DNA of 64,000 bases, taken from sequence record PQ805430.1; one strand, written 5' to 3'. Below, one piece after another: positions 1-60,331 of this stretch. The position numbers and the translations under genes are program-made. The notes below the pieces were generated by a model. The model saw only the letters and a list, made by a program, of their open reading frames with translations. It made no database searches and was not told the origin of the DNA. Source of the DNA: Escherichia phage EK8. How positions within the stretch are numbered: the first letter of the stretch is position 1; every line of letters begins with the position of its first letter.

Positions 1-1061
1 TGACAGTCAACCATGATGCCCGCATCTTTTTCGGATTTAACACCGGATGCAGTCAGGCGTTTGTAGATCACGATGGAGCCATCGTCAGCAATCGGCAGAT
101 CGCCGTGCTTCATGAACTTCATCAGGTCTTCAACGCTGAAACGGCGTTTGTGAACCACCGTACCCAGGCGTTCCAGGAATTTCTGGAAGCCAGTGAAGTC
201 TTTCAGATCCGTGGCTGCTTTAACTTGTGCAGCCAGGTGCTGAGCTTCCGGGATGATGGTACGGCCACCGTTGGTAACCGCCACTACCGTTTCGTCTTCG
301 GTCAGCTTTTCGTGGAACTTCGGATCGGATGCAGGTACTGCTTCCTTCTCCAGAATGTCCAGTCGAGCATTGGCCTCAGCGATTTTCTGCTCATTGGTTT
401 GAACCGGAGCAACCGGAGCCGGAGCATTGGCAGGCTTGTACGTTACCACACCGCCCAGGCGAGCCAGTTCGGTTACGAACAGCTTAACCCGTGCATCGTT
501 AACATCATACGCCACGAGAACCGGCAGGCTGCTGGATACCAGGTCATGGGCTTCTTTCAGCCCAGCCCCGGCGACAGCACGGATAGCTTTGATAACAGCA
601 ACCTTCTGCCCCTGCGGGTATGCTTCCAGCATCACGTCATAGTTACCCGGAGGGATAACCACGTCGTCGAACTCAGTCTCTACCGACTCGCCGGGGATAA
701 CCCCCAGCTTGATCGGATTGACATAAGCAGACGGTGCCGGTTGGGTAACCGCAGGCTGCTCAGGTTCATCACTGAACCAGTCAGCAATACGTTTTTTCGC
801 CACTTTGAAGAAGCGAACAACACCATTACTGGCTTTCTCTGCTTCATCAAATTCCGGCTGATGGACAACCGGTATAACCGGTGCCAGGGAGACTTCCACT
901 GCACGAGGGGGAACCTCGGACAGCGGAGCCTTCACCGTTTCCATAATGCGGGTGACACGAGGATCACCCTGCTTTACGGTTACGGTATCACCGTCCTCGG
1001 TAAAGAGGACGATGTTCGCAGAGTCAACTGACACTGCGATCACCACAACTGAATTTTTCAT
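1..1061 (-). CDS. rIIB: rIIB-like protein (partial; start at 1061, 3' end beyond window start)
   Basis: ATG at 1061..1059 overlaps rIIA stop (ATGA); hand translation MKNSVVVIAVSVDSANIVLFTEDGDTVTVKQGDPRVTRIME... stays open to position 901 in frame; plus-strand ORF 105..1031 is its shadow; position directly downstream of rIIA. Confidence 0.45.
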   Translation of the reverse strand, partial: MKNSVVVIAVSVDSANIVLFTEDGDTVTVKQGDPRVTRIMETVKAPLSEVPPRAVEVSLAPVIPVVHQPEFDEAEKASNGVVRFFKVAKKRIADWFSDEPEQPAVTQPAPSAYVNPIKLGVIPGESVETEFDDVVIPPGNYDVMLEAYPQGQKVAVIKAIRAVAGAGLKEAHDLVSSSLPVLVAYDVNDARVKLFVTELARLGGVVTYKPANAPAPVAPVQTNEQKIAEANARLDILEKEAVPASDPKFHEKLTEDETVVAVTNGGRTIIPEAQHLAAQVKAATDLKDFTGFQKFLERLGTVVHKRRFSVEDLMKFMKHGDLPIADDGSIVIYKRLTASGVKSEKDAGIMVDC

Positions 1062-3496
1062 TTTTTATTTCCGTTTTTCATCGCGATTAAAACGAGGGAT
1101 CGGAGAGCAGCTTTTCTCTCCGGGTACATGTCGGCAATCTCACGGACTTGCTCAATCGTTAATTTACGAATCACAATATCCGACTTGATGGCCTTAATTT
1201 GCTTGATCCAAGCAAACTCGGTCAGGTGCAAGGTTTCAACAACCTTACACTGCTCGTACTCTTCTTCGGTCAAGACCTCATCGGTGTACAGGCGATAGAG
1301 GCTGCACTCGTCGATAGCTTTGATTACAGCTTCCAAATCCTTACGGAATGTTAGCTTCTTCAAGCCAGGGACTTTAATGTCCAGCTTCTCCAGCATACGC
1401 AATGTGCCAGATTCTATGTTATGGGCAGTGGACAGATCCGATTGACGTTCTTTGGTCAGGTAGGTCTTCATCTCTTTGCTGAGATAAATCTCCAGCATAG
1501 GTTTGATGAAATACTGATCTACCGGAACCGCACCACGGCGTGCTGCCATGTTACGCTCGATACCGTTACGGACTACCACTGCGTTATCCAGCAGATTGTC
1601 ATCCAGCATGGATGGCGTGCAGAAACGGCCCAGCTTATTGTGCTTCACATCGTCGTACTCAACGTAGAACAGCGGAGCGTCGGTATTACCTTTCCACTCT
1701 TTAGCTGTCTTGATTTTCGAACGTGTGAACACCATAACGCCTTTGTCGCCAGTGTCCACCATGTTACGGATGGGCACCAGGCCATTTGCGATTACTGGTT
1801 TGGCTTCAGCAAGTTTTTTACGCTGCTTTTTGTACTTCTCGACCGGATCCCATTCATGATTCAGGGTCAGGTCAACGACAGTCCAGCCAGCGTCAGTGAA
1901 GGCTTTGATCGGTGCAACCTTTGCATCCTTCTTCATGCCGATGTGGTAAATGTAATAGTTCTTACGGAAGTCAGAGCCATTAAAACCAGGCCACTGCTCG
2001 CAGGAATACTCTACTTCTTTCAGGCGGGTAGTGATGAACACCACACGCTGAGTCAGGCAGTAGAGATTGCTCAGGATTTCCATGTCCTTGTGGTACAGGT
2101 GGAAATTCTTTGCGGTCAGCGAACGATAGCCTTTGAACTGAACCACACGAAGTGATCTCAGATCCAGGTCTTTATGCTCAAAGACTTTGGCTACCGGCTT
2201 CCAGATGAACTGGTAATGGAAACGACGTAACGCATCGTTGCGGCTGGTATTTTTAGCCACGTTAAGGGCACCCAGCAGGGCACTTTCGATGCTCGGATGA
2301 ATATTCCGCTCCGCGAGGAACTTCTTATACGAAGCCAGTTCACAATTTTTGAAGTATTTACGCCAGTGCTCAACGAGATCTTTACCCAGAGGTGAGGTCA
2401 GATAACGCTGTTGCAGATCGGAAAAGCCACGGATGAAGTGATACCAGTTTTTATCCTGCAAACGGTTGGCATTGACATCCCGCAGTTCCTCGCCAACTTT
2501 CATGGCTGTTACCGGAATGCTGGCACGGATATCTTTTTCGACACGCTTGGTCAGGTTAACGCAGAGGTCAACGATACCGTTCTCCGTCATCTTCTGGCTT
2601 GACAGTGCCTCACGGCCCGGTGTTAAAGCCAGAGTGTCAGGAGCAGCCTGAACGAGCATACGACGGATGTTCACGATACGCATGAAACGACGGATGGTGT
2701 CCAGGGCAGGACGAGTTGCCGGGGTATCCAGTGCCGGATAAACGACGTTACCATAACGGATAAACACTGCGTGCTCACCCATATAATCGTCATACCAGCG
2801 GTTCGAGTCCATGTGATAAGAACCTGGCTCGAAGGACATACCCAGTGTTTCCAGACGGCCAGTGGCACCACGGTAATAACCGGATACTTCCAGATCCACT
2901 TTCATTTCGCCATGCAGCGTGATGTAACGGATGTACTGGAGGAACTCGTACTCATCCCCATCTTCGACACGGATACGCACTTCCAGACCGGTTTCAGTGG
3001 TCGGAGCGTCCATGATTTTGGTAATACCCGGACGGCCACCAGATTCTATTGAGGATTTAGTTATGTTGTATACCGTCTTAGTTCCCTGGTTATACGAGAT
3101 AACCCGGAAGCTGTCGGTATACGCGAATGGTGATTTACAGCCCAGGCCAAAGCCACCAGTCACATTGCTGTTGGTCTTTTTGGTGGACGCACCATAGGTG
3201 CCGTACACTTCACCCATTTTGTCATGGGGAATGCCTGTACCGAAGTCACGGAAGATGAGATCACCTTCTTCGTTGATGGATACTTTAACGGCTGTGTCTT
3301 TCAGGCCAGCCTCAATATGGGCATCCCAGGAGTTGCAGAGCGTTTCACGCACTACAGCTAATTTCTGGTTTGAATAGAGGTTGGCTGACAAAATCTGGAA
3401 GAACGCCGGATCGTCAGAGATACCGAAGTTGATGGTCTGGTTGGCACCGCCCAGAGTTGCGGAAGACGCCAGTTGTGTTGAGTCGGCTACCTGCAT
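1058..3496 (-). CDS. rIIA: rIIA-like protein with N-terminal GHKL (histidine-kinase-like) ATPase domain
   Basis: 812 aa; N-terminus LSANLYSNQKLAVVRETLCNSWDAH...DFGTGIP...GGFGLGCKSPFAYTDSF matches the N-box/G1/G2 boxes of T4 rIIA as recalled. Confidence 0.75.
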   Translation of the reverse strand: MQVADSTQLASSATLGGANQTINFGISDDPAFFQILSANLYSNQKLAVVRETLCNSWDAHIEAGLKDTAVKVSINEEGDLIFRDFGTGIPHDKMGEVYGTYGASTKKTNSNVTGGFGLGCKSPFAYTDSFRVISYNQGTKTVYNITKSSIESGGRPGITKIMDAPTTETGLEVRIRVEDGDEYEFLQYIRYITLHGEMKVDLEVSGYYRGATGRLETLGMSFEPGSYHMDSNRWYDDYMGEHAVFIRYGNVVYPALDTPATRPALDTIRRFMRIVNIRRMLVQAAPDTLALTPGREALSSQKMTENGIVDLCVNLTKRVEKDIRASIPVTAMKVGEELRDVNANRLQDKNWYHFIRGFSDLQQRYLTSPLGKDLVEHWRKYFKNCELASYKKFLAERNIHPSIESALLGALNVAKNTSRNDALRRFHYQFIWKPVAKVFEHKDLDLRSLRVVQFKGYRSLTAKNFHLYHKDMEILSNLYCLTQRVVFITTRLKEVEYSCEQWPGFNGSDFRKNYYIYHIGMKKDAKVAPIKAFTDAGWTVVDLTLNHEWDPVEKYKKQRKKLAEAKPVIANGLVPIRNMVDTGDKGVMVFTRSKIKTAKEWKGNTDAPLFYVEYDDVKHNKLGRFCTPSMLDDNLLDNAVVVRNGIERNMAARRGAVPVDQYFIKPMLEIYLSKEMKTYLTKERQSDLSTAHNIESGTLRMLEKLDIKVPGLKKLTFRKDLEAVIKAIDECSLYRLYTDEVLTEEEYEQCKVVETLHLTEFAWIKQIKAIKSDIVIRKLTIEQVREIADMYPERKAALRSLVLIAMKNGNKK

Positions 3497-55396: not shown

Positions 55397-55621
55397 CTAA
55401 GACAGTTCGACGTAGCCTTCTTCGAATACGTCTTTAGGGGACCAGGAGTGATACTCCTGATCCGTACCTTTGGCATACACGACCAGATAGCCTGCTGTTT
55501 CCGGTGAACCAGCCAGGTCTTTCTTACCGGAGTGAGTTTTAAATTCACCCAGCGTCATTGGGGTAGCGTGAACTTTTTTATGGCACTGATACAGTTTCAG
55601 ATCTGACATTTCTAACCTCAA
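55397..55621 (-). CDS. hypothetical protein (74 aa)
   Basis: ORF, 4-nt overlap with upstream gene. Confidence 0.4.
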   Translation of the reverse strand: MRLEMSDLKLYQCHKKVHATPMTLGEFKTHSGKKDLAGSPETAGYLVVYAKGTDQEYHSWSPKDVFEEGYVELS

Positions 55622-57780
55622 GGTCTGGCCAATTTCTTGGCTACGGTGATCATGATAGAACCGTTGATTTCGGCTTCATCAAGTTTGTCTGCCAGTTTGT
55701 CATTGAGTTCAATCACGCGAGTGCGGATACCCTCAAAGTCAAAGCCAGCATCGATAAGAATTTCAGCAAAACGGTGCAGCATGTTATTGCGGTTACCGTC
55801 GCCCGTATTATTGATAACCCAACGTTCCAGGTTATCCATCTGCTGCTGGTTACCCAGCAACTGCTTACGGTCTTCGTTCTTACTGGTTTTCGGAATGTAC
55901 GGGAGCACGTCGAATACTTCGCCGTCTTGATACTCGTAACTTCCCTTATGGCTAAGCCACTTCTTACAACGGTGAGTACAGGACTCATCCACTTCAAACG
56001 GTAACCCTTCGATTACGTTATTCATGAACTCTTTGTACTCTTTCGCATCCATGTACAACTCATAGTTCGTTGGCATTATGATGCGGAAACGGTTCGTTTC
56101 AGGAGTGGATCGCTTGGTGGTATAGAACAACGCTTTCTGCCCCTGGAGCAACAGCTTAGCCGTGCTCAGTTGCATAGTGCCGTCGATATCGAGAACAATC
56201 ATGTTGAAGCCAGGAATGGCATTCTCTTCGTTACGATAACCACTTGCCACATGGTGATTAAGCCAGTGGACGCCATCGGTTTGAGTCATCTTCCAGAGCT
56301 TGTCGAACGGTGCTCTGACTGCCTGATAACCCGTCGTCATATCCTGGTTTTGGGTATACGACAGAATCATCTCGCTGAGGTCAGTCTCTTTGAGGGTTTC
56401 CCCACGCAGGAACTGAATACCGTCATTAAAGGCTTTCTTAATGATGACGTTATTTTTATAACCCCATGCAGTCGCCATAGTGATCATCTCGTCTTTCTGG
56501 TTACGACCGCCACGGAAATACGGCAGGTCTTCATCCAGATCAGCGAGTGTCACTTCGTTTTTGGTTGCAGCCAGATAACGTGCCAGCTTGACGTAAGGGC
56601 GCTCAGGAGTCATCAGCTTGGCAAATGCCTCACCGGATTCCTCCACCAGCTTAATGGCGTTTTCCAGGTGATCCTGGGTAATAACCGCCGATTCATCAAT
56701 GAAGGCATAGGCTGCTGCCAGTTTCAGCGTTTTGAAGTAGCGATGATCCATCTCACTTTTCTTCACACTTTCGTGCTCGCTGTATTCGGCACCACGTTCT
56801 TCACACCATAAACGGTAGCGAAGAAGCTCCAGACAGACCGGCTCCGGGATGAATACCTTTTTACGGATATTCGCCACGTCAGCCAGACGGCCTAACTGAG
56901 TGCTGAGATCTTCGATGAAGTTGTTGCCCGCAGCATTGAACATCTGGGCCATCATCTCTTCTGCCGTTACGCCAGCTTTCTTCTTGCTGCCGATAACGAA
57001 GCCGAACAGACAGCGACGGGCATACCCCATTTCCAGCATGTCGTTAAGACGACGCTCGGTAATGTCACCATCAAACAGCTTGGTCGGAGTACCGAATAGC
57101 AGCATGTTGGTTGGGGTTGTGCCAGTGAGTCGCTCATGGCGAACGTTCTCGCTGGTGGACTTGACCAGCTTCTCCTTGACCATACCCAGATCGTAAAGTT
57201 CCAGGAAGGTGTCCAGCACCTCAGTCTGACCAACCAGGTTTGCACCTACTTCGTCAATCTGGAGGTTGACCGCACCAGCGTTACCCATCAGCAACTTGTG
57301 TCGCATCTGTTTAACTGCCGGGGTGGTGCCTGAGTCAAAGCTGAATAACAGCGAACCCAGGCTATCGAACTCTTTGCGTACCGCTACGAGTTCATCAGCC
57401 GGGTCAATCGTGTTATCCGGGGTACTTTTACGGGTTGCACGTTTATGAGCCAGTTCCAGTAAGTGTTGCTCTGCAATCTCAGGGAACGTGTATTCCAGGA
57501 AGTTTTCCCGGAACTGGTTGATGATCTCACGTTCGATGAGACTGGTTGAATAACCTTTACCGGTGCCTGACGGTGACAGGTTCAGGGCATAGATATTAAT
57601 CGGCAGACTGCCACGGTCGAAACCGTGAATCTCAGCACGCATAGACGATGCAATTTGTGCCCAGTAGTACGCCAGCACCACACGGAAGAATAAACGTTCC
57701 TGGTTCTGGGTTTTGGTGCAAAGAATATCGACGACCTGCTCCGACATTGGATGATAGGCCATCTCACTTACTGGTTTCAT
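55618..57780 (-). CDS. putative DNA primase / replication initiation protein (720 aa)
   Basis: large replication-module protein; NMIVLDIDG resembles the DxD motif of archaeo-eukaryotic-type primases; no family-A polymerase motifs. Confidence 0.35.
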   Translation of the reverse strand: MKPVSEMAYHPMSEQVVDILCTKTQNQERLFFRVVLAYYWAQIASSMRAEIHGFDRGSLPINIYALNLSPSGTGKGYSTSLIEREIINQFRENFLEYTFPEIAEQHLLELAHKRATRKSTPDNTIDPADELVAVRKEFDSLGSLLFSFDSGTTPAVKQMRHKLLMGNAGAVNLQIDEVGANLVGQTEVLDTFLELYDLGMVKEKLVKSTSENVRHERLTGTTPTNMLLFGTPTKLFDGDITERRLNDMLEMGYARRCLFGFVIGSKKKAGVTAEEMMAQMFNAAGNNFIEDLSTQLGRLADVANIRKKVFIPEPVCLELLRYRLWCEERGAEYSEHESVKKSEMDHRYFKTLKLAAAYAFIDESAVITQDHLENAIKLVEESGEAFAKLMTPERPYVKLARYLAATKNEVTLADLDEDLPYFRGGRNQKDEMITMATAWGYKNNVIIKKAFNDGIQFLRGETLKETDLSEMILSYTQNQDMTTGYQAVRAPFDKLWKMTQTDGVHWLNHHVASGYRNEENAIPGFNMIVLDIDGTMQLSTAKLLLQGQKALFYTTKRSTPETNRFRIIMPTNYELYMDAKEYKEFMNNVIEGLPFEVDESCTHRCKKWLSHKGSYEYQDGEVFDVLPYIPKTSKNEDRKQLLGNQQQMDNLERWVINNTGDGNRNNMLHRFAEILIDAGFDFEGIRTRVIELNDKLADKLDEAEINGSIMITVAKKLARP

Positions 57781-57791
57781 GGGTACTCCTA

Positions 57792-58784
57792 CTATTCGAG
57801 AATCAGATCGCCAGATTCGATCAACCGATCCTTTTGTTTACAGACGGTAAATGCAGGGCAGTATTTGCAAGCGCCTACCTGCCCCCTAACTTCAACTACT
57901 TCACCTTTACCACCTTTGTTCTGCCAGAAGGCAATCGCTTCACCTTCATTGGTGAAGTTTTTGGTGGCACGGGCTTTGTTCGCCGGGTTTGAGTAATATT
58001 TCCAGACCGGATCGCTACGCCATAGCTCGTCGTCGGTACAGTCCGGGATCTCTTCATCGGGTGCATTCATATACTGCTGCACCAGTTTCAGGCGGTTCTC
58101 AACGTACTGTTGAGTGTCTTCCACGGACATTAACTTGAACTTGCGAGGCATCATTTTACGCGGAGGATAATTAGCATCAGCCCGTGACATTGCTTTCTGC
58201 CAGTCAGTAAAGATGAACTGAATGGTGAAAACGTCATTGGTAATGATCTCCGGGTTAAGCCAGCGATAAATGGAACCCTGGAGGATATAGTCATCGTCTT
58301 TGCGATTCTTAATCCAGGTATAGACACTGGTTGATTTAAAGTCTTCCAGCGCACCGTTGCCAACGAAGTCAAACTTACCGGACACACGAAAACCCATCAC
58401 TTCTTTGAAGCTACGGAGTTCCATATATACCGGGATACTGTCTGGCTTGAGGTCTTCGGGATTCGGGTTAAACACAATACGATCAATGATGTGCTGTGGG
58501 TAGCCCAGATCCTTCATGGCTTGGATACGTGTCTCTTCCACCGACCAGGCTTTTTCGATGCCATCGTGGATCGCCGTACCCATACGTGCAGAGATGAAAT
58601 CCTCCACATCCGGGATATCAGATCCCGGTGGTACACGGCGAGCCAGGACGTATTGTCGTAGTGGTCGGATTAACGACGTAGCCGAGATGGTATTCGGAAT
58701 ATAGTCGTAGTGATCTACGGCGAGAAACAGCGCGACAGATAACGGGATATGCTCCCGGTTTGTCACCTTACGTTGATACGCCAT
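57792..58784 (-). CDS. PD-(D/E)xK nuclease, Cas4/RecB-like with Fe-S Cys cluster
   Basis: FDFVG...LEDFK (D...ExK), QGSIY (QhxxY), C-terminal CKYCPAFTVC. Confidence 0.6.
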   Translation of the reverse strand: MAYQRKVTNREHIPLSVALFLAVDHYDYIPNTISATSLIRPLRQYVLARRVPPGSDIPDVEDFISARMGTAIHDGIEKAWSVEETRIQAMKDLGYPQHIIDRIVFNPNPEDLKPDSIPVYMELRSFKEVMGFRVSGKFDFVGNGALEDFKSTSVYTWIKNRKDDDYILQGSIYRWLNPEIITNDVFTIQFIFTDWQKAMSRADANYPPRKMMPRKFKLMSVEDTQQYVENRLKLVQQYMNAPDEEIPDCTDDELWRSDPVWKYYSNPANKARATKNFTNEGEAIAFWQNKGGKGEVVEVRGQVGACKYCPAFTVCKQKDRLIESGDLILE

Positions 58785-59296
58785 TATTCTTTTTCCTGTT
58801 TGGCAAGGAACTCAGCAGCCAGTGCCTCATAGGCTGTAGCGTCCTCAAAGTTGTCCAGCTTAAAATTCCCCTGGGTACTGCGTACCATCTTGAGGAATAC
58901 CATGAACCGCCAGCCCTGATCTTCGGTCAGGTTCATACCGTAGAACAGGTTGAACAGTTCGACAGTACGTCCCATCGACCGTTCACCTTCTGGCTTATCG
59001 TAAGTAACAGCCCGGTCAGCTAAGTGTCCGGCAGCTTTACTTAGGATCTGGTCAGCCTTAACCAGGTCGGTCAGTGTATCCTGGAATTGTTCGTCATGCT
59101 CTTCCTGACTTAACTTTTCCAGCATATCGGCCAGCTTTGCAGCTTCACCCAGGTGATAGGCTTTTTTACGCCAAGTGGCAGACTGTGCTGCCGATTTCAT
59201 TCGGTTGTTATAATTAGCCTCCAGATTTTCAATCTGTTTGGCCCTAACGGAAGCTCTCATACTCGATCCTCTGCACAATGCCCGGAAGGGCATCAT
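58784..59296 (-). CDS. hypothetical protein (170 aa)
   Basis: ORF adjacent to ThyX-like gene. Confidence 0.45.
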   Translation of the reverse strand: MMPFRALCRGSSMRASVRAKQIENLEANYNNRMKSAAQSATWRKKAYHLGEAAKLADMLEKLSQEEHDEQFQDTLTDLVKADQILSKAAGHLADRAVTYDKPEGERSMGRTVELFNLFYGMNLTEDQGWRFMVFLKMVRSTQGNFKLDNFEDATAYEALAAEFLAKQEKE

Positions 59297-59466
59297 TTAG
59301 TTTTACGGTTGGATAACTTAATCCCATGCCTACTGGCATGTTCTTGAATAGACTTACGATCACGTTTCATAAGACGGGCAAGGTAGTCTATGTCAATATC
59401 ACGTCCATGTAGCTTTAACAGAAACTTCGTCTCGTCTACCGTGAATTGTGAATATCTCTTGCCCAT
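59293..59466 (-). CDS. small basic protein (57 aa, below ORF-track cut-off)
   Basis: hand translation MGKRYSQFTVDETKFLLKLHGRDIDIDYLARLMKRDRKSIQEHASRHGIKLSNRKTK; stop overlaps downstream ATG. Confidence 0.3.
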   Translation of the reverse strand: MGKRYSQFTVDETKFLLKLHGRDIDIDYLARLMKRDRKSIQEHASRHGIKLSNRKTK

Positions 59467-59472
59467 AGCGTT

Positions 59473-60234
59473 TTACTTTGTGAGTGCTTTCCACGATACC
59501 GGGTAAAGCGGTTCGATGATGGTGCGTACCAGTTCAGCAAGCTCCTGGTTTTCACCCTGAGCATGGGGATCGACACGCTTGTTGTAGAAGTTGGCGAAGG
59601 CAAACAGATTACCAGTCCAAAGCCAGTTAACCATTGCACCCTGGGGCAACACAAAGCGTGCTTGCTCTGGTGCTACACCCTTTTCTAGCATCCAGTTATA
59701 GCATTGTACTGCTTGTTCAACTTGGTACTTATAGGCTTCCTTGATGCCAGGATTCAACGGATGAATACCGCCACTACCCTGTTTAATAGAACCTTCTGGT
59801 TTGGTACGGAACTCCGGGATAAAAATCTCCGGCGTACAGGTGATATAGCGACGGGACTCTTCGTTTTCAACGAAGCCCTGCTTATGCTTGAAGCATTGGG
59901 TGCGGATTGGAATTGGTGCCTTCATACTTACGCTAATAGAGGTATGAGCGAACGGCGTCCAGTGAGTAGCCTGGTGTCGGATCTGGTTATAGAGTTCGAT
60001 AGCTGCCTTACCTGATCCCTCTGGACACTTCAACGTACCGTTTTGAATCGCATTAATTACTGCGTTACGATCATCAGTTTTAAGGCCGAAAGCCAGGAAG
60101 TTGATTAACCCTATATCCTTCTTGGTTAATTCACCACTGGTTTCATGGCCTATACCAAAGGACAAACGGGCCGCATTGACCACCGACTTATCGGTGCCCA
60201 TATGATCCACATAAATTGCTGATTGTTGAGACAT
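59473..60234 (-). CDS. thyX: ThyX-fold protein (flavin-dependent thymidylate synthase-like)
   Basis: aligns by eye to ThyX: AARLSFG, HWTPFAH, KAPIPIRTQCFKHK...SRRY, ARFVLPQG, R...HAQ; signature reads K-H-K not R-H-R. Confidence 0.65.
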   Translation of the reverse strand: MSQQSAIYVDHMGTDKSVVNAARLSFGIGHETSGELTKKDIGLINFLAFGLKTDDRNAVINAIQNGTLKCPEGSGKAAIELYNQIRHQATHWTPFAHTSISVSMKAPIPIRTQCFKHKQGFVENEESRRYITCTPEIFIPEFRTKPEGSIKQGSGGIHPLNPGIKEAYKYQVEQAVQCYNWMLEKGVAPEQARFVLPQGAMVNWLWTGNLFAFANFYNKRVDPHAQGENQELAELVRTIIEPLYPVSWKALTK

Positions 60235-60331
60235 GGTATTTCTCCAGTTAATAGTTCATTGAGGGGCAGGGAACTGCCCTTTTATGGGAAAACAGTTTAT
60301 GATTTAGGCATTCGATTAAAGGAGACTCATC

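Follow-up and report, generated by a model that had tools for sequence, protein, structure and literature searches.

A ThyX homologue of Escherichia phage EK8 belongs to a mainly phage-borne subfamily altered at flavin-holding positions

The gene considered here, thyX, encodes a 253-residue homologue of the flavin-dependent thymidylate synthase ThyX. It lies in a stretch of 64,000 nucleotides of DNA from Escherichia phage EK8 (sequence record PQ805430.1), hereafter called the window. The window represents most of the genome of an N4-like podovirus (Schitoviridae, Cbunavirus-like), a phage of Enterobacterales. The thyX open reading frame (ORF) starts with ATG, and the positions of the gene, its motifs and its neighbours are collected in Table 1. 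Over the 4.5 kb around thyX, the window is 81-83% identical in nucleotide sequence to Pectobacterium phages Nepra, CB1 and CB3 and to Kosakonia phage Kc283. The gene order, with primase, exonuclease, small genes and thymidylate synthase on one side and the tail genes on the other, is the same in Nepra. In Nepra, CB1, CB3, phiA41 and Kc283 (Cbunavirus and relatives), orthologues likewise lie with the block of primase and exonuclease on one side and the tail genes on the other. All of them have the triad lysine-histidine-lysine (K-H-K) where the canonical ThyX signature reads R-H-R, and the Nepra thymidylate synthase is 80% identical to the EK8 protein. The gene is already annotated as a thymidylate synthase in relatives. 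The window is nevertheless a distinct species-level relative of these phages, and in Nepra the place of the DUF6378 gene beside thyX is taken by a gene with barely any similarity to it.

Table 1. Positions of thyX, of its sequence motifs and of neighbouring genes in the window (aa, amino acids; Tm, Thermotoga maritima ThyX; Mtb, Mycobacterium tuberculosis ThyX)
Feature	Position	Strand	Basis
thyX coding sequence, 253 aa, SRRY-type ThyX homologue	59473..60234	-	ORF list, Pfam and TIGR profiles, AlphaFold2 and Foldseek
Ribosome-binding site GGAG, 8 nucleotides 5' of the thyX ATG	60242..60245	-	direct sequence reading
Codons AAG-CAT-AAG, K116-H117-K118, at the Tm R78-H79-R80 positions	59881..59889	-	alignments
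S127-R128-R129-Y130, at Tm S88-G89-R90-Y91; additional Arg at 89 is the subfamily hallmark	59845..59856	-	alignments
F211, at the Tm R165 position (Mtb R190, H. pylori R165)	59602..59604	-	ungapped stretch against Tm
R220, at Tm R174, uracil-binding Arg, kept	59575..59577	-	alignments
57-aa ORF flanked by thyX and the DUF6378 gene	59293..59466	-	weak phrog_323 'transcriptional regulator, D5-like', E=1.9e-6
DUF6378 protein, 170-aa ORF	58784..59296	-	Pfam DUF6378, E=3.4e-8
PD-(D/E)XK / Cas4-like exonuclease, 330 aa	57792..58784	-	phrog_2139 exonuclease, E=4e-140; phrog_1706 CRISPR/Cas-associated, E=1e-10
N4-type DNA primase, 720 aa, replication-module context	55618..57780	-	phrog_2135 DNA primase, 1112 bits

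Membership of the ThyX family, which had been proposed in a first-pass annotation made from the sequence, was borne out by profile and fold searches. The protein matched the Pfam family Thy1 (PF02511) with E=3.9e-34 and 118.5 bits (cut-off 24.8), the NCBIfam thyX equivalog TIGR02170 with 100.8 bits (cut-off 87.9) and the thymidylate synthase group phrog_85 with E=3.5e-54. Enzymes of the ThyX family are homotetramers with bound FAD, in which three subunits contribute to an active site. A structure was predicted with AlphaFold2 as a monomer without ligands, from an alignment of 122 homologues. The mean predicted local distance difference test score (pLDDT) was 94.6 and the predicted template modelling score (pTM) was 0.90. 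In a Foldseek comparison of this model with the PDB, the top 50 matches were all T. maritima ThyX, with E values of ~3e-16, template modelling (TM) scores of 0.69-0.83 and a probability of 1.00. The strings AARLSFG, HWTPFAH, ARFVLPQG and RVDPHAQ, which had been quoted as family landmarks, are all present in the ORF.

The motif of the phage protein reads C-F-K116-H117-K118-QGFVENEE-S127-R128-R129-Y130. In phmmer searches of PDB sequences, 'qcfkhkqgfveneesrry' was aligned to 'QWFRHRIAS-YNELSGRY' of T. maritima ThyX with a single one-residue gap, and to 'QWFRHRTASV-NEISGRY' of the Thermus-type enzyme 6j61. The MAFFT and hmmalign alignments placed the motif in the same register. Based upon the phmmer register against these two enzymes, the two lysines align exactly with the positions of T. 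maritima R78 and R80, and the placement of K-H-K-x8-S-R-R-Y on the R-H-R signature in the first-pass annotation was thus upheld. Where the literal ThyX motif is R-H-R-x7-8-S, the phage protein has K-H-K-x8-S, with the histidine and the serine in register and both arginines replaced by lysine.

Residue numbers of T. maritima ThyX are used below unless the phage protein is named. The residues tested for the deoxyuridine monophosphate (dUMP) site were Q75, E86, S88, R90, Y91, R147 and R174, and this set is complete in the phage protein as Q113, E125, S127, R129, Y130, R193 and R220. H53, the folate-stacking histidine (PMC11940539), is present as H91 in HWTPFAH. At the canonical ligands of the diphosphate and ribityl groups of flavin adenine dinucleotide (FAD), R78, R80, R165 and E58, the phage protein has K116, K118, F211 and A96, and among these positions only the positive charge at 78 is kept. 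Sequences with Arg at 89, no Arg at 80 or 165 and no Glu at 58 are here called SRRY-type, and the EK8 protein shows this combination (R128, K118, F211 and A96). Since it lacks the literal R-H-R-x7-S motif and the canonical FAD-diphosphate ligands are gone, the protein, which homology and fold place in the ThyX family, is filed as a motif variant of the SRRY type. Compared with T. maritima ThyX (FDTS, TM0449; PDB 1o26, 4gt9 and 8reo), it has the same fold (TM score up to 0.83) at about 28% identity. Shared in register are H53, H59, Q75, H79, N85, E86, S88, R90, Y91, R147, N163, N169, R174, H178 and Q180. The differences are R78 to K, R80 to K, G89 to R, R165 to F, E58 to A and R74 to T (with an Arg one residue earlier), together with about 35 additional residues inserted ahead of the H53 motif.

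Each AAG lysine codon is a single transition from an arginine codon (AAG to AGG), yet all of the 120 database homologues that are closest to the protein carry K-H-K; these are 65-90% identical to it and lie mostly on contigs of ~75 kb. Because it is shared by all of these homologues, K-H-K is neither a chance occurrence nor a sequencing error. A HMMER scan of 1.84 billion cluster representatives returned 5,183 relatives at E<=0.001. R-H-R was found in none of the best 150 of these 5,183, the nearest representatives of clusters formed at 50% identity. Their triads were K-H-Q (47), K-H-K (39), K-H-T (7) and K-H-V (5), with K-S-K, K-S-T, R-H-T, R-S-N and others among the remainder. The double Arg-to-Lys change is thus not peculiar to this phage; these sequence counts show K-H-K to be the regular signature of a large ThyX subfamily that is borne mostly by phages and includes Roseophage SIO1 and cellular genes of Dependentiae.

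T. maritima numbering was mapped onto 122 members of the subfamily. A sample of 424 sequences was composed of the 150 representatives, canonical phage ThyX (L5 gp48, S-RIM8, Thermus TMA, Gordonia OlgasClover and RcPescado), 209 IMG/VR loci and 52 bacterial and archaeal loci; related loci were searched for with a profile from a 26-sequence subset of the subfamily alignment. Arg89 without R-H-R ("SRRY") was seen in 277 of the 424 sequences, and R-H-R without Arg89 (Gly, Gln or Ala at 89) in 133. Another 14, fragments or odd members, had neither, and no sequence had both. R-H-R and Arg89 are therefore mutually exclusive states in this sample, in which the counts are clade-structured and not independent events, and describe a subfamily signature rather than a statistical test. 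A neighbour-joining tree was built from 151 sequences, and 45 of its 48 canonical ones fell into a single clan.

Nucleotide and folate residues are retained throughout the 122 members: S88, Y91, R147 and R174 in all 122, R90 in 121, H53 in 120, Q75 in 119 and E86 in 116. R174 was present in 420 sequences of the whole sample of 424. Position 78 is Lys in 105 members and Arg in 14. Position 80 is Gln, Lys, Thr, Glu, Asn or His and never Arg, position 165 is hydrophobic (Tyr, Ala, Leu, Phe, Met or Val) and never Arg, and E58 is replaced by Ala, Gly, Ser or Thr. Arg89 was found in 114 of the 122 members as against 0 of the 133 R-H-R sequences. An Arg at 169, one helical turn past 165, is present in 78 of the 122, and within the clade of the EK8 protein a Lys at 173 occurs in 10 of the 27 members that retain N169. 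The double Arg-to-Lys change is thus real but does not stand alone, as it co-varies with the loss of R165 and E58 and the gain of Arg89, which the first-pass annotation had not noticed.

Named phage proteins of the SRRY type are SIO1 (AAG02594), which has exactly K-H-K, phiEcoM-GJ1, Pseudomonas O4 and E. coli SU7 with K-H-Q, Streptomyces Mildred21 with K-Y-T, and Bacillus 276BB001 with K-Y-L. All share K78, SRRY and the lack of Arg80 and Arg165 with the EK8 protein and are annotated as thymidylate synthases, but they are only 25-40% identical to it, and their third motif position differs (Gln, Thr or Leu) except in SIO1. Most of them keep A-R-Q where the EK8 clade has R-T-Q. Chromosomal ThyX of Dependentiae (TM6/Babeliales) is also of the SRRY type, with R/K-H-T/V/S and neither R165 nor E58; it is cellular, 31-38% identical, and unlike the EK8 protein often still has Arg as its first motif residue. 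The canonical phage and viral enzymes L5 gp48, S-RIM8, Thermus phage TMA and PBCV-1 A674R belong to the ThyX family and have the same presumed role of boosting deoxythymidine monophosphate (dTMP). They differ in keeping R-H-R, Gly or Gln at 89 and E58, and L5 gp48, S-RIM8 (a cyanophage sequence) and TMA keep R165 as well. Mycobacteriophage L5 gp48 is presumably an active ThyX. PBCV-1 ThyX is active according to the literature; its motif is S88-Q89-R90 (PMC3498832), a published reading, PBCV-1 itself being outside the alignment. Among solved or reviewed enzymes with the motif checked, those of T. maritima, 6j61, M. tuberculosis and H. pylori have R-H-R, and PBCV-1 has Gln at 89.

The closest match labelled as a bacterial genome was contig_12 of Acinetobacter sp. 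A47 (L006, 74,273 bp), with a 56% identical ThyX and K-S-K. This contig is as large as a complete N4-like phage genome and is probably a phage genome that was assembled along with the Acinetobacter isolate. Similar thyX genes were seen inside complete chromosomes of Bacterioplanoides (L009), Spirochaetia (L011) and Brevundimonas (L021), and these loci could be N4-like prophages. Inteins or homing-endonuclease inserts were observed in SRRY-type homologues of 520-600 aa (P0128, P0158, P0165 and P0179, and probably P0141 and P0195), with Intein_splicing and HNH domains in P0158 and LAGLIDADG_3 in P0128, P0165 and P0179. Two insertion sites are used, one directly before the invariant Ser88 (in P0128, KHTVGFAHNTQ / C...N / SRRY) and one just before the H53 motif. 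Inteins usually lie at functionally critical sites, and positions at the S88 and H53 motifs are as expected for such sites. Phages CB3 and CB4 are 97% identical, and of the two main features reported to distinguish them one is the thymidylate synthase ORF (PMC6027278). In the nucleotide comparison, CB4 aligned across a smaller part of the thyX region, and an HNH or intein sequence inserted at thyX as a mobile element may underlie this difference.

Published structural work assigns distinct roles to the residues that change. R-H-R and Arg190 of the M. tuberculosis enzyme (Arg165 in H. pylori, from the neighbouring subunit) form hydrogen bonds with the adenosine monophosphate phosphate, the ribityl and the flavin mononucleotide (FMN) phosphate of FAD, and only the first motif Arg also touches the isoalloxazine and dUMP (PMC6514825). 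Based upon its spacing to the uracil-binding Arg (199 and 174, respectively), this Arg190/Arg165 corresponds to T. maritima R165. R78 faces N1/C2=O of the reduced flavin and stabilises the anionic FADH- (PMC11940539). Another source lists R78, R80, S88 and R90 as hydrogen-bonding dUMP, and reports that the side chain of residue 89 (Gln in PBCV-1) is able to occupy the dUMP-phosphate pocket (PMC3498832). The earlier statement that the two arginines contact the dUMP phosphate has a basis in the last of these sources, while the other two assign R-H-R chiefly to FAD and R78 to the flavin. Because FAD ligands are altered and dUMP-site residues are invariant or nearly so, the change would concern the holding of the flavin and not the choice of nucleotide. 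Lysine commonly stabilises flavin N1/C2=O in flavoproteins, and E58 is reportedly an FAD contact in canonical enzymes. For a changed nucleotide preference, which the two lysines had first suggested, the sequence gives no sign, as the dUMP site is conserved in the protein and its subfamily, and the fallback proposal of a tolerated variant is the one favoured by the evidence.

In the arrangement proposed here, the replacement of the first motif Arg by Lys would leave a positive charge at flavin N1/C2=O and near the dUMP phosphate, and the second motif position (80) would be free to vary among Lys, Gln, Thr, Val and others. The FAD-phosphate ligand R165 and E58 are lost. The Arg89 gained beside the invariant Ser has a side chain that could reach the dUMP-phosphate pocket, and Arg89 and Lys78 together may provide the charge that is required at the dUMP phosphate and at flavin N1. 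The grip on the FAD diphosphate (R80 and R165) would be given up or relocated, with Arg169 and Lys173 as candidates for the relocated charges. The nucleotide site would be unchanged and FAD would presumably be retained.

The EK8 protein is quite probably a functional ThyX that converts dUMP to dTMP with methylene-tetrahydrofolate, reduced flavin and NAD(P)H, as part of a mainly phage-borne SRRY-type subfamily with remodelled flavin-holding residues. To the observed homology, fold, register, co-variation, dUMP-site conservation and genomic contexts, catalytic activity is added as what we infer. Production of dTMP is suggested because the dUMP and folate residues are conserved, thyX shares an operon with the dCTP deaminase gene (dcd) in cellular relatives, the DNA of phage relatives is digestible, and neither the window nor the Nepra annotation yielded modification genes or a second thymidylate synthase. 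Four loci from Dependentiae/Babeliales and related metagenome-assembled contigs, L040 (K-H-V), L041 and L042 (both R-H-T) and L047 (R-H-V), have a dCTP deaminase gene immediately downstream of thyX, and in L042, a 124-kb contig, thyX is beside a class II aminoacyl-tRNA synthetase gene. By analogy with the textbook pairing of dUMP supply and methylation, the two genes would constitute a dUMP-to-dTMP operon. Since 277 sampled homologues lack R-H-R, including the cellular genes of such operons, the R-H-R motif describes a canonical subgroup only. The DNA of the relatives CB1, CB3 and CB4 was cut by BamHI, its ClaI pattern reflected Dam methylation only, and it was Illumina-sequenced with no problems reported (PMC6027278). 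Neither those ORFs of the window that were scanned nor the annotation of Nepra contained genes of the hydroxymethylase, glycosyltransferase or DNA base-kinase type, and no second thymidylate synthase was found in the window or in that annotation. On this reading, an N4-like phage of Enterobacterales would express thyX with its replication genes and thereby boost the dTMP supply.

The L042 contig also carries leucine-rich repeat, ankyrin and collagen-repeat genes around thyX, which are typical of these intracellular bacteria. A dcd-thyX pairing has been reported for N4-like roseophages (PMC11934525), and it was considered and set aside as context for the EK8 gene: DSS3phi2 gp29 has no Pfam Thy1 hit and no homologue in the window. 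This protein (L276 4658-5506), annotated 'putative thymidylate synthase, N4 gp30-like', gave no Pfam Thy1 match at E<0.01, reads ...MTHRVFGRNARSSRAVP... at a motif-like site, and sits in a cluster of dCMP deaminase, dATP/dGTP pyrophosphohydrolase and gp29. The 'thyX' of the roseophage papers may be a far more divergent protein.

Several points weigh against dTMP synthesis with FAD retained. The motif residues of M. tuberculosis ThyX were necessary for tritium-release activity, according to Ulmer 2008 as cited in PMC2386288, and SRRY-type enzymes must therefore compensate, presumably through the rearranged charges proposed above. Three FAD-phosphate ligands are altered at once, and the affinity for FAD or the identity of the flavin could be different. 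Searches of the literature and the PDB returned no SRRY-type member that had been assayed or structurally solved. The argument from Dependentiae is one of gene order only, and no statement on thymidylate synthase was found in Dependentiae genome papers. BamHI digestion is compatible with subtle base modifications. No dCTP or dCMP deaminase and no dUTPase to feed the enzyme was found in the window, though the host has these. In the narrower clade of the EK8 protein, R74 too has given way to Thr, and an Arg stands at the preceding residue (R-T in 24 sequences versus A-R in 71).

An altered chemistry or substrate, whereby the enzyme acts on dCMP or UMP or releases 5-hydroxymethyl-dUMP and so feeds DNA modification, is very unlikely. 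It draws on the departure from the literal motif, on the one source that counts R78 and R80 among the hydrogen-bond partners of dUMP (PMC3498832), and on ThyX-fold proteins for which a divergence in substrate or product has been proposed or shown. One of these is the ThyX paralogue of phage SP-15 (gp130), hypothesised to be a hydroxymethyluridylate (5-hydroxymethyl-dUMP) synthase (PMC5977210). In the EK8 subfamily, however, the uracil-reading R174 with R90, the phosphate ligand R147, and S88, Y91, Q75 and E86 vary little or not at all, and the residues that change are flavin-phosphate ligands. PolB (PDB 4p5a), a UMP C5-methylase in the biosynthesis of polyoxin and so a ThyX homologue with an altered substrate, is among the phmmer PDB matches of the phage protein, but with E=1.4e-8 only as compared with 1.6e-18 for T. 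maritima ThyX, and the EK8 protein keeps the full dUMP-site set. No evidence was found for a link to PolB or SP-15 gp130, given the conserved nucleotide site and the lack of a second thymidylate synthase or modification genes in the window or the Nepra annotation. The pairing of SRRY-type thyX with a dCTP deaminase gene in cellular genomes and the digestible, readily sequenced DNA of the phage relatives also argue against an altered product, as does the lack of a second thymidylate synthase that would free thyX for a new role.

That the same reaction proceeds with a different handling of the flavin, through weak FAD binding, another pose, FMN, or reduced flavin as a diffusible co-substrate, is a less probable explanation than retained FAD, with a modest chance of being correct. 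R80, R165 and E58 are jointly altered in 277 sequences, the hypervariability of position 80 implies that no contact is maintained there, and Arg169 and Lys173 suggest relocated charges. The proposal is drawn purely from sequence, and S30, N85/E86 and N163 (or Ser) remain, as does H178 in 89 of the 122 members. R165 is His in some R-H-R enzymes (the RcPescado-like group and 6j61) and is thus not indispensable, and Lys and Arg89 may simply substitute. Its further-reaching form, a mechanistically distinct ThyX class that has abandoned the tight grip on the FAD diphosphate and binds its flavin differently or exchangeably (FMN or free reduced flavin), appears more doubtful. A decayed or non-catalytic ThyX relic, merely carried along, is highly improbable. 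The protein does deviate from the motif residues cited as necessary in M. tuberculosis ThyX (PMC2386288 citing Ulmer 2008), but its ORF is full-length with a ribosome-binding site, the predicted fold is of high confidence, the catalytic residues are invariant under strong purifying conservation over hundreds of phage and cellular homologues, and relatives have kept inteins at active-site motifs.

If the protein is a dTMP-producing ThyX with remodelled flavin-holding residues, as we favour, little is at stake for the phage itself, which would have an expected dTMP-boosting auxiliary enzyme. The textbook R-H-R-x7-S motif misses a large fraction of natural ThyX sequences, and one phylogenetic study discarded ThyX sequences more than two dissimilar residues off the motif (PMC2826268). 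Neither the departure from the motif nor the co-varying changes at positions 58, 89 and 165 were found described in the literature searched. The subfamily separates indispensable contacts (S88, R90, Y91, R147 and R174) from replaceable ones (R80, R165 and E58), which may be helpful in the design of ThyX inhibitors, in motif-based annotation filters and in understanding how the flavin is held.

The neighbours of thyX are as first described, a 170-aa ORF, here assigned to DUF6378, and a 330-aa Cas4-like nuclease; an additional 57-aa ORF separates thyX from the 170-aa ORF. The translation of the exonuclease shows a C-terminal C-x2-C-x5-C. The real start of the DUF6378 ORF is probably M13 at 59260 (MRASVRAKQ...), which would give a protein of 158 aa, because most homologues are 158 aa long and align from there. 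Invariant residues of the family include R83, D88, G92-E93-R94-S95, W117, K124, R127, D136 and D140, and the fold is all-helical. In a locus of Vreelandella massiliensis, an SRRY-type thyX is followed directly by a DUF6378 gene (L017 6666-6899), and in the Acinetobacter contig another such gene (L006 9750-10004) is located 3 kb downstream of thyX. Mycobacteriophage L5 gp55 (L005 7033-7503) belongs to the same family and is located in a cluster of ThyX and ribonucleotide reductase genes; its annotation as 'phosphofructokinase' is most likely wrong. This recurrent adjacency of DUF6378 and thyX hints at a functional link. A nucleotide kinase of the T7 gp1.7 type, which would make a pair of ThyX and dTMP kinase, was considered for the DUF6378 neighbour and rejected: gp1.7 belongs to DUF3310, and the comparison gave a BLASTP E of 12 and an hhalign probability of 1.5%.

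Where the window has the DUF6378 gene, Nepra has gp70 (L001 21779-22303), a 174-aa protein annotated as '3'-phosphatase 5'-polynucleotide kinase'. This Nepra protein gave no Pfam match and is only weakly similar to the DUF6378 protein of the window (25% identity, hhalign probability 86%), and its kinase/phosphatase annotation looks unsupported. thyX and the first tail gene are divergent and 97 bp apart, and the intergenic region that separates them contains a perfect 6-bp inverted repeat with a 4-nucleotide loop at 60264-60279 (GGGCAG TTCC CTGCCC on the minus strand), which could be a terminator, a regulatory hairpin or an N4-type promoter hairpin. At the left end of the window, a 308-aa ORF (105-1031, plus strand) without a PHROG match lies beside the rIIA gene (1058-3496, minus strand) and is probably a spurious antisense ORF within a truncated rIIB gene.

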